A stretch of 64,000 nucleotides of DNA from an uncultured Alphaproteobacteria bacterium (GTDB taxonomy: Bacteria; Pseudomonadota; Alphaproteobacteria; Rhizobiales; Xanthobacteraceae), in contig CAVREN010000064.1 in assembly GCA_963720115.1 (NCBI GenBank), positions 35,753 to 99,752 on the forward strand, read 5' to 3'. A program made the position numbers and the translations under genes. Within the stretch, counting starts at the first letter, position 1. Each line of letters starts with the position of its first letter. The notes beneath the pieces were generated by a model that saw nothing but the letters and a program-made list of their open reading frames with translations, did no database searches and was not told the origin of the DNA. Below, one piece after another: positions 60,902 to 63,736 of this stretch.

Positions 60902-63736
60902 TTGACGAAGGCCCACGCGCGCTTCTCCATCGGCATTGATCTTGGCACAACCAACTCCGCCCTGGCATTCGCACCCTTGCTCGGCGAGGCGACCCCGGAG
61001 ATCCTTTCCGTCCCCCAATGGGAAAGCTTGGCCGGCCTGACGGAGGAGCCAACGCTGCCTTCCTTCCTCTACTTACCGGAGGAAGCGGCCGCGGCACACT
61101 TTCGCGGCAAGGAGGTTGGCGCGGGGGAATGGGTCGTCGGCCGATTTGCGCGTATCAAGGCAAGCGAAACACCTGGGCGCGTCGTCCATTCCGCGAAGTC
61201 CTGGCTTTGCCATCACGCCGCCGACCGGTCGGAGCCGTTTCTGCCTTGGGGATCGCCAGATCTAACCCGCGAGCAGAAGATCTCACCGGTACGCGCCTCT
61301 GCATTGATTCTGAATTATGTGCGGGGGACCTGGAACAGCAGGTTTGCCCAGGCCGGGTTTGCGTTCGATGATCAGGAGATCACAGTTACGGTCCCCGCTT
61401 CCTTCGATGCGGCGGCACAGCGGCTTACGATTGCCGCCGCCGAGGAAGCGGGCTTCCCAAAAGACGTGCGACTACTGGAGGAGCCGCAGGCTGCGTTCTA
61501 TTGCTGGCTGGAGAAACACGACCCGACACATGAGTTGTGGCAGCGGGCGGACGGTGACGATACCGATCTGCGGCACGTGTTGGTCATCGATATCGGCGGT
61601 GGCACTTCAGATTTCAGCCTTTTCGAACTGCGCCTGAACGAGCAAAGCTCGATGCCAGACATCAAGCGCGTGGCGGTGAGCGAGCATATCTTGCTCGGCG
61701 GCGACAATATTGATCTTGCCATCGCGCACATGGTGGAACCGCGGCTTGCCGGATCAGGCGGCCAGATTTCCGGCCCGCAATGGGACCAGCTCGTGGCCTC
61801 CTGCCGTAACCTGAAGGAGCATGCGTTCGCCGCCACAGGGCCGCCGGACGAGCGGTTTGTCGTTGGACTGGCCGGTCGCGGGTCAGCAATGGTTGCCGGC
61901 TCGCAGGCAGTAACGGTGAGGCGAGCGGAAATTGAGGGCGTATTGCTGGATGGATTCTTTCCCTTCTGTAATGCGGGGGCGCGGCCGTACCGAACACTGG
62001 GCGCGCTGAAGGAGTGGGGGCTTCCCTATCCCTCCGACGGCGCGGTGACGCGACATCTCGCCGAATTCCTGAGTGATCGCCCACGCGTTGATGCGGTCCT
62101 GTTCAACGGCGGATCGATCCGACCACCGCTCCTACGCCAAAGACTTCGCGAGCAGATCGGAGTCTGGCAAGACGGCTTTGTGCCGCTGGTTCTGGAGAAT
62201 GAGGAGCCGGACCTGGCGGTAGCGCGCGGAGCCGCACGATTCGGTGCTCTTCTCCACCAGCATTCGAGTCAGATCGCCGCTGGGTCCGCCCATTCGGTCT
62301 TTCTCGAAGTGGAGGGAATACCCGCGACGGATGCTGAAACCGCGCCTCCGTCTCTCGTGTGTGTTCTTCCACAAGGTGCAGCGCCGTCGCAGGTTTTTGA
62401 GATCGCTGATCTTGGGCTTAGGGTCCGCACTCATCAGCTCGTGCGCTTCCAGGCATATTCGTCGAGCCGTCATAGCGGGAGCCGCGCCGGAGACGTCCTT
62501 TCGTGGTCCGAAGGCGATTTTCACCCGTTGCCAGCGCTTCAGACAATCATCAGATCGACCGAGCCATCAGCCACTGGGACGAATGGGACCATGCCCGTCA
62601 GCTTAGTCGCGCGGATGAACGCGCTGGGCCTGCTCCAGATCTCCTGCATCAGCGCCGCGCCCGGCAGCCAGCATTCCTGGCCACTGGAATTCAACATGCG
62701 CCTGCACGACCAAGGCGGCGCGAGCGTACCCGGCGCGCGACAGTCCCGCGAAGCCACCGTTCAGATTGAGCCGAACGCCGCAGCGGACGCGCTGGAAACG
62801 GCACGCAAGCAGATCGGAATCGCGTTCGCCCAGCCTGGCAGCAAGAGTAAAAAGGGCAAGCTTACTGCCGGCACGATCCTCAAGAGCCTGGAGCCCATCC
62901 TCGGCTCACCCAGGAGTGGATGGAACGGGCCCCTGTTGCGCGCCCTTTGGGCTGCCCTGGAGGAACGGCTCGACAGCAGACGACTCTCGGTAGACCACGA
63001 AGAGGCTTGGCTCATCATCGCCGGATTCCTGCTGCGCCCGGGTTTCGGAGTTGTCCGGGACGACCTTCGTATCGACGCCCTGTGGCGCCTGCAGGACGCC
63101 GGCCCATGTTTTCCCGGTCGGCGCATCAAGAGCCAGGAATACATCCTATGGCGGCGAGTGGCCGGCGGGCTCACGCGCGAACGCCAGAACAAGCTTCTGA
63201 CAGGAGAGGTCGATAGGATATGCAGCGGCAAGGCGCCGGACGAACTCGTGCGCTTGACAGGTTCGTTGGAACTGATCTCCCACGACACAAAGGCGGAACT
63301 GGTCAGGCGTTTCCTCGAGATCGCTGTGACGCTGGCACGCGCCAAGCAGCACTGCGCTCCCTATCTTGCAGCGCTTGGACTCCTGCTCAACCGAACTCCG
63401 CTCTACGCGGGGCCCGAGACTGTCGTTTCACCCGACCTCGTCGAGCGCGCGTACTCGGCCTTCCAAGATTTCGATTGGACTAACCCCGAGCTGCTTGACC
63501 TGCAGAACCTGTTCCTTCGCGCCGCGCGCGTCGTCGACGATCGTAGGCTGGACGTGCCCAAGCCGCTGCGCACGCTGATTGCCAACAAGTTGGAGAAATC
63601 CGGCGTGCTCCCACTGCAGACGGCGAAGATTAGAGGATTCATTCCGATAGGGCGGTCCGATGTGGCCAGCATGTACGACGAGTCCCTGCCTCCGGGTCTA
63701 GTCCTGGGCAGCGACTATGACAACGCAGGCGGCTAG
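60902..63736 (+). CDS. Non-canonical Hsp70-family ATPase with a roughly 340-aa C-terminal helical extension (paralogue B, 944 aa)
   Basis: TTG start with GGAGG 6 nt upstream. Motifs present: GIDLGTTNSALAF, TVTVPASFDAAAQ, LLEEPQAAFYCW, VIDIGGGTSDFSLF, GGDNIDLAIA, VLFNGGSIRPP and EPDLAVARGAARFG. Residues up to about 600 parallel paralogue A. Residues from about 605 to 944 are a Leu/Arg-rich, predicted helical domain with no recognised motif. Confidence 0.88.
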   Translation: MTKAHARFSIGIDLGTTNSALAFAPLLGEATPEILSVPQWESLAGLTEEPTLPSFLYLPEEAAAAHFRGKEVGAGEWVVGRFARIKASETPGRVVHSAKSWLCHHAADRSEPFLPWGSPDLTREQKISPVRASALILNYVRGTWNSRFAQAGFAFDDQEITVTVPASFDAAAQRLTIAAAEEAGFPKDVRLLEEPQAAFYCWLEKHDPTHELWQRADGDDTDLRHVLVIDIGGGTSDFSLFELRLNEQSSMPDIKRVAVSEHILLGGDNIDLAIAHMVEPRLAGSGGQISGPQWDQLVASCRNLKEHAFAATGPPDERFVVGLAGRGSAMVAGSQAVTVRRAEIEGVLLDGFFPFCNAGARPYRTLGALKEWGLPYPSDGAVTRHLAEFLSDRPRVDAVLFNGGSIRPPLLRQRLREQIGVWQDGFVPLVLENEEPDLAVARGAARFGALLHQHSSQIAAGSAHSVFLEVEGIPATDAETAPPSLVCVLPQGAAPSQVFEIADLGLRVRTHQLVRFQAYSSSRHSGSRAGDVLSWSEGDFHPLPALQTIIRSTEPSATGTNGTMPVSLVARMNALGLLQISCISAAPGSQHSWPLEFNMRLHDQGGASVPGARQSREATVQIEPNAAADALETARKQIGIAFAQPGSKSKKGKLTAGTILKSLEPILGSPRSGWNGPLLRALWAALEERLDSRRLSVDHEEAWLIIAGFLLRPGFGVVRDDLRIDALWRLQDAGPCFPGRRIKSQEYILWRRVAGGLTRERQNKLLTGEVDRICSGKAPDELVRLTGSLELISHDTKAELVRRFLEIAVTLARAKQHCAPYLAALGLLLNRTPLYAGPETVVSPDLVERAYSAFQDFDWTNPELLDLQNLFLRAARVVDDRRLDVPKPLRTLIANKLEKSGVLPLQTAKIRGFIPIGRSDVASMYDESLPPGLVLGSDYDNAGG

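Follow-up and report, generated by a model that had tools for sequence, protein, structure and literature searches.

A DUF3731 domain with a predicted armadillo/HEAT-like fold at the lid position of a bacterial Hsp70-like protein

Three co-directional, adjacent genes lie at the end of a 64,000-nt stretch of DNA from an uncultured alphaproteobacterium (contig CAVREN010000064.1 of GenBank assembly GCA_963720115.1, positions 35,753–99,752; hereafter 'the window'). In order, they encode a DUF2760 protein, a short Hsp70-like protein (paralogue A) and a long Hsp70-like protein (paralogue B). Paralogue B continues for more than 300 residues beyond the end of its similarity to A, and the question raised by this locus is what that extension is and what it might do for an Hsp70 ATPase. 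We find that it is the DUF3731 domain, an ordinary and intact member of a catalogued family and the hallmark of the long paralogue. The domain is predicted to form an α-solenoid that occupies the place of the canonical Hsp70 lid, where it probably serves as a platform for a partner or client. The domain itself was already catalogued; the present analysis adds its boundaries, a map of motifs (LRPGxG, WRRVAGGL, LPxGLxL and the AEVEL of the partner) and selection data, which together permit clean truncation and point-mutation designs. The practical result for the window is modest, and the module to which the domain belongs spans at least 563 bacterial species, the genus Vibrio included.

Identity, extent and conservation of the extension

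The product of gene B contains both an HSP70 (PF00012) and a DUF3731 (PF12531) domain on one 944-residue chain, as identified by hmmscan. The PF12531 match ('DNA-K related protein') scores 138.1 bits, where the cut-off is 25 (E 6.1e-40), and spans the whole profile (1–248 of 248). A six-frame search of the genome returns the same match, which is the only such domain there, and all 87 aligned homologues match PF12531 and no other family. An earlier note on this DNA had found no motif that it could recognize in the region; these matches do not support that statement. The window protein shares with the PF12531 family the C-terminal placement behind an Hsp70 ATPase, the LRP motif and the length class, and differs in nothing essential; its predicted fold starts at residue 628, some 70 residues before the start of the Pfam model (residue 696). 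A conserved LRP motif is part of the Pfam description of PF12531, and the window protein has LRPGFG at residues 711–716. These proteins carry the NCBI name 'Hsp70 family protein'. A search of NCBIfam gave no match for the tail, and PADLOC matched only the ATPase core, weakly, to PDC-M61B. Sequence searches of the PDB, with the single sequence and with an 87-sequence profile, gave best E-values of 0.02–0.13.

The extent of the extension follows from comparison of the two paralogues. Residues 2–600 of B align with residues 13–623 of A at 36% identity (BLASTP, E 1e-91), and A ends two residues past the aligned part. Since this similarity stops at B residue 600, the extension comprises residues 601–944 (nt 62702–63733). 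The earlier note had A stopping where the similarity ends, B running on for about 340 residues, and the added region as unique to B, all of which is borne out: we count 344 residues, and nothing beyond B residue 600 matches A in the BLASTP comparison. Its start at nt 62714 (residue 605) lies within four residues of the computed one, a trivial offset. The region had also been called rich in Leu, Arg and Trp. This is correct for Leu and Arg, which make up 14.5% and 9.3% of the tail versus 10.5% and 6.8% of the body of B, but not for Trp in the window copy (1.7% versus 2.0%). Trp is enriched only family-wide, at 3.4% of the helical domain versus 1.6% of the body across 86 homologues, and several of these residues are invariant or nearly so.

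The combination of PF00012 and PF12531 is the standard architecture of the family. A word-indexed search found 910 relatives as 90% clusters, and almost all of the 120 relatives listed carry both domains on a chain of about 930–945 residues. An exhaustive HMMER search of 1.84 billion cluster representatives (50% clusters) returned 1055 at E<=1e-3; in the full-length matches listed, which reach down to 31% identity, the domain is always C-terminal and the protein is about 870–1050 residues long, nearly all falling between 870 and 985. A scan of one genome per species with the WRRVAGGL motif as the search pattern located relatives in at least 563 species. Longer fused forms were sought among proteins of 1653–4720 residues and none was found at E<=1e-3, a result that the search tool itself rates as weak evidence. 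Two short matches were checked as candidates for stand-alone DUF3731 proteins and rejected, both apparently being 3′ parts of interrupted full-length genes that are broken or were wrongly assembled. Both come from metagenomes: one has an in-frame stop upstream (L002:352-357), whereas the second shares 200 nt with an open reading frame (ORF) that lies upstream in a different frame (L003:980-1188).

Conservation within the extension is uneven. The mean identity of the window protein to 80 full-length representatives is 45% in the nucleotide-binding domain (NBD, residues 1–460), 32% in the β domain (461–600), 15% in the linker region (601–655) and 36% in the helical domain (656–936). The most conserved part of the tail, residues 681–760, reaches NBD levels. 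Pairwise ratios of nonsynonymous to synonymous substitution rates (dN/dS), calculated for the window copy against 11 relatives, are 0.15–0.29 for the helical domain, 0.12–0.20 for the NBD, 0.14–0.39 for the β domain and 0.33–0.69 for the linker. The helical domain is under purifying selection as strong as that on the ATPase domain. The earlier note had asked whether the extension is conserved in homologues of the long paralogue or drifts. The 1055 representatives and the dN/dS range settle this for conservation, and the outcome of drift does not apply to the tail because of that range and the family-wide conservation.

Three short motifs stand out in the alignment of the tail, which includes eight invariant and about twenty nearly invariant columns among sequences down to 26% identity. 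The invariant residues are W674, R680, R712, P713, D720, R752, G756 and R831. R712 and P713 belong to the LRPGFG loop (LRPGxG in the family), where L711, G714 and G716 are present in at least 90% of the 86–87 homologues. R752 and G756 belong to the helix-end motif WRRVAGGL, where W750, R751, G755 and L757 reach the same level. The third motif, LPxGLxL, lies near the C-terminus and is found in tails from seven genera, with L929, P930 and G932 in at least 90% of homologues. In the body of B, the ATPase motifs show no variation among 86 homologues, for example D230-G-G-G-T235-x-D237, E193-E194-P195 and G403-G404. Across these 86 proteins the two parts of the chain differ in charge: the helical domain has a mean net charge of +5.8, an isoelectric point (pI) of 9.2 and 10% Arg, versus a net charge of -10.7 and a pI of 5.7 for the NBD.

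Predicted structure and the position of the lid

The structured core of the tail is predicted to be all-helical, in agreement with the earlier description of the tail as helical. An AlphaFold2 (AF2) model of the tail alone, calculated from an 87-sequence alignment, contains 17 helices and has a predicted local distance difference test score (pLDDT) of 92 and a predicted template modelling score (pTM) of 0.88. The structure search that the earlier note had proposed was run with this model and placed armadillo proteins on top, but none at E<=1e-3. All of the top Foldseek rows against the PDB are armadillo-repeat proteins, and the best are designed armadillo proteins (E 7e-3, template modelling score 0.43–0.54). 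In an exhaustive VIA-align search the model matches ARM/HEAT solenoids, including the glideosome connector, importins, CAND1, catenins and designed armadillo proteins, with Z 10–13 over 235–270 residues, although values under about 13 may reflect just a common arrangement of helical repeats. Because Z-scores of this size are common for such repeats, we describe only its fold as armadillo/HEAT-like and do not assign the domain to either family. The model makes about 300 residues of the extension, with high confidence, an α-solenoid of armadillo/HEAT-like type, the likeness being one of fold class only.

The remainder of B resembles a conventional Hsp70. An AF2 model of the full-length protein, calculated from an 86-sequence alignment, has a pLDDT of 87.7 and a pTM of 0.85, with residues 599–623 below a pLDDT of 50. 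VIA-align superposes residues 6–600 on DnaK 2–504 and on BiP in the domain-docked form, with Z 33–38 and root-mean-square deviations (rmsd) of 3.2–5.3 over 463–472 residues. Foldseek searches with the full-length model point to 7kzu, 7kru and 6zmd (rmsd 6–6.7). Since residues 6–600 superpose on DnaK and BiP in this way, B has a normal NBD and a normal β-sandwich substrate-binding domain (SBD).

The extension begins where the lid would be expected, and the earlier suggestion that it stands in place of the canonical lid agrees with the superposition, in which B residues 6–600 correspond to the NBD and SBD-β of DnaK and the tail starts directly afterwards, at exactly the point at which helix A of the lid starts in DnaK. 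The alignments with DnaK, BiP, Ssb and Sse1 stop at model residues 597–614, and no Hsp70 or Hsp110 lid aligns to the extension. Like the SBD-α lid of DnaK (approximately residues 508–605), the extension directly follows the β-sandwich and is all-helical. It is, however, three times larger and is predicted to form a solenoid instead of a five-helix lid. The connection also differs, as the DnaK lid is joined by the continuous helix A and the extension of B by a linker predicted to be disordered.

Two features of the full-length model suggest contact between the solenoid and the body. A pTM of 0.85 would be hard to reach with a free-floating domain of about 300 residues, and the solenoid is therefore probably docked on its own Hsp70 body in the model. 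In addition, the C-terminal LPxGLxL motif is coil in the tail-only model (pLDDT 64) and is predicted to form a β-strand at residues 933–935 in the full-length model (pLDDT 79). The appearance of the strand only in the full-length context hints that this motif may dock on the body.

The DUF3731 module and candidate roles of the solenoid

The DUF3731 protein is found with the same partners in most loci. In a sample of 301 genomes from the same phylum, DUF3731 is present in 17 and DUF2760 in 18; both occur in 17 and neither in 283, and in the single DUF2760-only genome the gene lies 2 kb from a contig end. The ORFs with DUF3731 in the 17 genomes encode 738–1479 residues, 15 of them 906–1014. The order DUF2760, A, B, with A adjoining B, is kept in seven genera and in the majority of another 80 loci. 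When all ORFs of 87 loci were clustered, no fourth gene proved to be conserved, and hence neither GrpE nor a J protein. B stands alone in three genomes (L023, L056 and L089) that have a DUF2760–A pair elsewhere (L091-L093). As this pair stays adjacent where B is unlinked, the link between DUF2760 and A is tighter than the link to B. Paralogues A and B are separated by an additional 2.9 kb or so of DNA in one genome (L006:3553-6473).

We consider it probable that the DUF3731 solenoid is a lid-replacing platform for a partner or client, and that it is the hallmark of a module composed of DUF2760, a lid-less Hsp70 and an Hsp70–DUF3731 protein. The solenoid would take the place of the lid, probably docked on its own Hsp70 body, and would provide an otherwise generic ATPase with a large and specific protein-binding surface. 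As a candidate site, the first half of the solenoid offers a group of clustered invariant residues (Arg, Trp and Gly) around LRPGxG and WRRVAGGL. ATP-driven movements of the body could then be coupled to the capture and release of one dedicated partner or client, and closing over unfolded peptides in general, as a lid does, would not be the task of the solenoid. Its ligand is most plausibly a protein, with DUF2760, paralogue A or a dedicated client, such as a substrate at the membrane, as the candidates. Neither family nor structure searches pointed to an enzyme, and for this reason the role of effector is the least likely of those proposed in the earlier note. A binding platform would be in keeping with an armadillo/HEAT-like fold. 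If the solenoid truly replaces the lid with a dedicated platform, the Hsp70 engine would have become a single-purpose machine that operates without DnaJ or GrpE.

Several observations weigh against this reading. The ARM/HEAT matches are generic for helical repeats, with Z-scores in the range common for such folds, and no Arm or HEAT family matches any of the 87 homologues at E<=0.05. Comparison of five or six helical units with hhalign gave a best E-value of 0.0011 over 15 columns, and the two halves of the domain align at E 0.16, neither being significant; the 'repeat-like' pattern proposed in the earlier note is therefore present in the predicted structure, as a 17-helix α-solenoid, but not in the sequence, where no pair of units reaches significance. 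Docking in cis would rest on one global confidence number, and a domain on a free tether would be just as compatible with the 27-residue linker, which is poorly conserved and predicted to be disordered. As for the invariant Arg, Asp and Glu residues, they could form buried salt bridges instead of a ligand site. The partner or client of the solenoid is at this point a candidate only, and the searchable literature yielded no experiment on a DUF3731 domain.

A different role for the solenoid would be that of a putative built-in nucleotide-exchange factor. In the manner of HspBP1, Fes1 and Sil1, or of the helical embrace of Hsp110, it would hold lobe II in the ATPase domain of A, or in that of a second B molecule, and cause ADP to leave. 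This would explain the lack of GrpE in the module, where no conserved fourth gene supplies GrpE or a J protein. The presence of the domain on only one of two paralogues is consistent with this arrangement, and the basic character of the solenoid would go well with the acidic ATPase domain. HspBP1, Fes1 and Sil1 are armadillo-type solenoids of an Hsp70 system, as the extension of B would be, but they are separate proteins and the solenoid of B is a fused tail. The HspBP1 core (1xqr_A), which has the same fold class, is indeed matched at Z 9.8 (rmsd 6.5 over 225 residues). It appears only at rank 48, however, and the match is non-specific because dozens of unrelated solenoids, among them importins, catenins and designed proteins, rank higher. 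The extension also has no sequence similarity to any exchange factor, and we regard this role as unlikely.

Docking of DUF2760 on the solenoid is also improbable as the specific function of the domain. The DUF2760 protein has a hydrophobic, membrane-anchor-like N-terminal segment and ends in [ILV]A[PQ]AEVE[LV] followed by at most one residue, a terminus that is nearly invariant in homologues first from eight genera and then from 54 species. Pairing of an EEVD terminus with a tetratricopeptide repeat (TPR) protein is a feature of eukaryotic Hsp70, and by analogy the end of DUF2760 looks like a candidate docking tag comparable to EEVD. The invariant Arg residues of the solenoid would then clamp the acidic ...APAEVEL end, reversing the EEVD/TPR logic, and B would be tethered to the membrane. 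The presence of DUF2760 in 17 of 17 DUF3731 genomes, and in three more with unlinked genes, is in accord with this possibility, as are the conservation of the terminus in at least 54 species and the basic character of the solenoid with its invariant Arg. On the other hand, in the three unlinked genomes DUF2760 adjoins A and not B, and A may be the protein to which it is most closely tied; a substrate-binding domain could just as well be the target of the acidic tail. Prediction of a complex between residues 620–944 of B and the soluble domain of DUF2760 (residues 79–206), each with a 54-row alignment from the same loci, gave a score of 0.00 in both runs, which were made without controls and speak neither for nor against the pairing. 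An extended version, to which we give a poor chance, treats the triad as a self-contained Hsp70 machine without J-protein or GrpE that would be wired by two C-terminal motifs: DUF3731 would bind ...APAEVEL, and the LPxGLxL of B would serve as a pseudo-substrate strand, blocking a substrate-binding domain until the partner arrives.

The basic solenoid might instead bind a polyanion other than protein, either the head groups of membrane phospholipids or RNA, the ligand suggested for the putative RNA-binding protein CnuD. CnuD and CnuCD of type III CoCoNuT restriction systems combine an Hsp70-like NBD/SBD with HEAT-like helical repeats, for which RNA binding is predicted (PMC11090510). Compared by description, this is the sole bacterial architecture of an Hsp70 NBD/SBD with HEAT-like repeats that we found described, and B has a similar one. 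The positive charge and Arg content of the solenoid, its conserved Trp residues across 86 homologues and the membrane-anchor-like N-terminus of DUF2760 would fit such a ligand. Nevertheless, the extension matches no known RNA- or lipid-binding family, and PUF-type proteins are missing from the top structural matches. The functional partners of CnuD are McrB/McrC homologues and HEPN nucleases, whereas the 87 loci related to B conserve only the triad; McrB-like GTPase and McrC-like (DUF2357) genes are not among the conserved neighbours when all ORFs of these loci are clustered, and neither McrBC nor nuclease genes occur in the neighbourhood. B has intact ATPase motifs; those of CnuD are called degenerate in the same paper (PMC11090510), which names neither DUF3731 nor PF12531. 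Polyanion binding is accordingly very unlikely. The idea of a tail that has no function and drifts, or that is an artefact of annotation such as read-through into non-coding DNA, can be dismissed: it accounts for the variable linker of residues 601–627 only, and is refuted by dN/dS values equal to those of the ATPase domain, by the invariant and nearly invariant columns, by the confident fold and by the same architecture in at least 563 species.

Relatives of the module and layout of the locus

The lid-replacing platform that we favour would belong to a module that is accessory in the lineage of the window, because six of six sampled genomes from the same family contain neither DUF3731 nor DUF2760. 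The nearest relatives of the window protein are from uncultured Alphaproteobacteria and Bradyrhizobium, at about 80% identity. Verrucomicrobiota copies come next, at 50–57% identity, which suggests horizontal spread, and the module looks horizontally acquired.

The module also occurs in Vibrio. It is present in all four genomes of a genus-level sample, including Vibrio toranzoniae, whose protein falls into a cluster of 637 members; all the named members read come from Vibrio. The Vibrio module has the gene order and tight spacing seen in the window; it differs in that the window copy is in an alphaproteobacterium with sampled family relatives that lack the module. In V. cholerae, VC1374 is annotated as 'DnaK-related protein'. 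The quorum-sensing regulator HapR directly activates the VC1375 promoter (PMC10328515), and VC1373-1375 are among the genes repressed within biofilms (PMC9201469). In Myxococcus, the loss of several Hsp70 genes of the atypical 'cd10170' type, studied by Pan et al. with deletion mutants, led only to mild defects in sporulation and oxidative-stress response (PMC8265645). In the searchable literature we found no paper linking DUF3731, DUF2760 or 'DNA-K related protein' with Hsp70.

Coordinates of the triad and of the domains and motifs of B are collected in Table 1.

Table 1. Features of the triad in the window (nucleotide positions of the window; aa, amino acid residues)
Feature	Position	Strand	Basis
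Gene B, long Hsp70-like paralogue, 944 aa	60902..63736	+	ORF list, translation; TTG start, stop included
Body of B, aa 1-600, Hsp70 NBD and β-sandwich SBD, predicted domain-docked	60902..62701	+	VIA-align, Foldseek
Variable linker, aa 601-627, predicted disordered	62702..62782	+	pLDDT, low identity, dN/dS
Armadillo/HEAT-like α-solenoid, aa 628-925, predicted structured core	62783..63676	+	AF2, Foldseek, VIA-align
PF12531 (DUF3731) match, aa 696-935	62987..63706	+	hmmscan E 6.1e-40
Loop motif LRPGFG, aa 711-716	63032..63049	+	Conserved in 86-87 homologues
Helix-end motif WRRVAGGL, aa 750-757	63149..63172	+	Conserved in homologues
C-terminal motif LPPGLVL (family consensus LPxGLxL), aa 929-935	63686..63706	+	Conserved in homologues
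Gene A, short lid-less Hsp70-like paralogue, 625 aa from first TTG	59002..60879	+	Pfam HSP70
DUF2760 gene, 206 aa, first of triad	58368..58988	+	PF10816, E 7.8e-43
DUF2760 extreme C-terminus IAPAEVELK	58959..58985	+	Alignments of 8 and 54 homologues

The TTG start of gene B is preceded by GGAGG at a distance of 6 nt. Directly after B, an open frame at 63739-63999 encodes 87 residues before it leaves the window. Its translation is odd and rich in Arg, Ala and His, it has no counterpart among the conserved neighbours of related loci, and it is probably not a gene. For gene A, the TTG at 59002 is the first possible start and lies 14 codons 5′ of an ATG at 59044. Homologues of paralogue A align from about this ATG, which may be the true start of the gene; the gap between DUF2760 and A would then be 55 nt.

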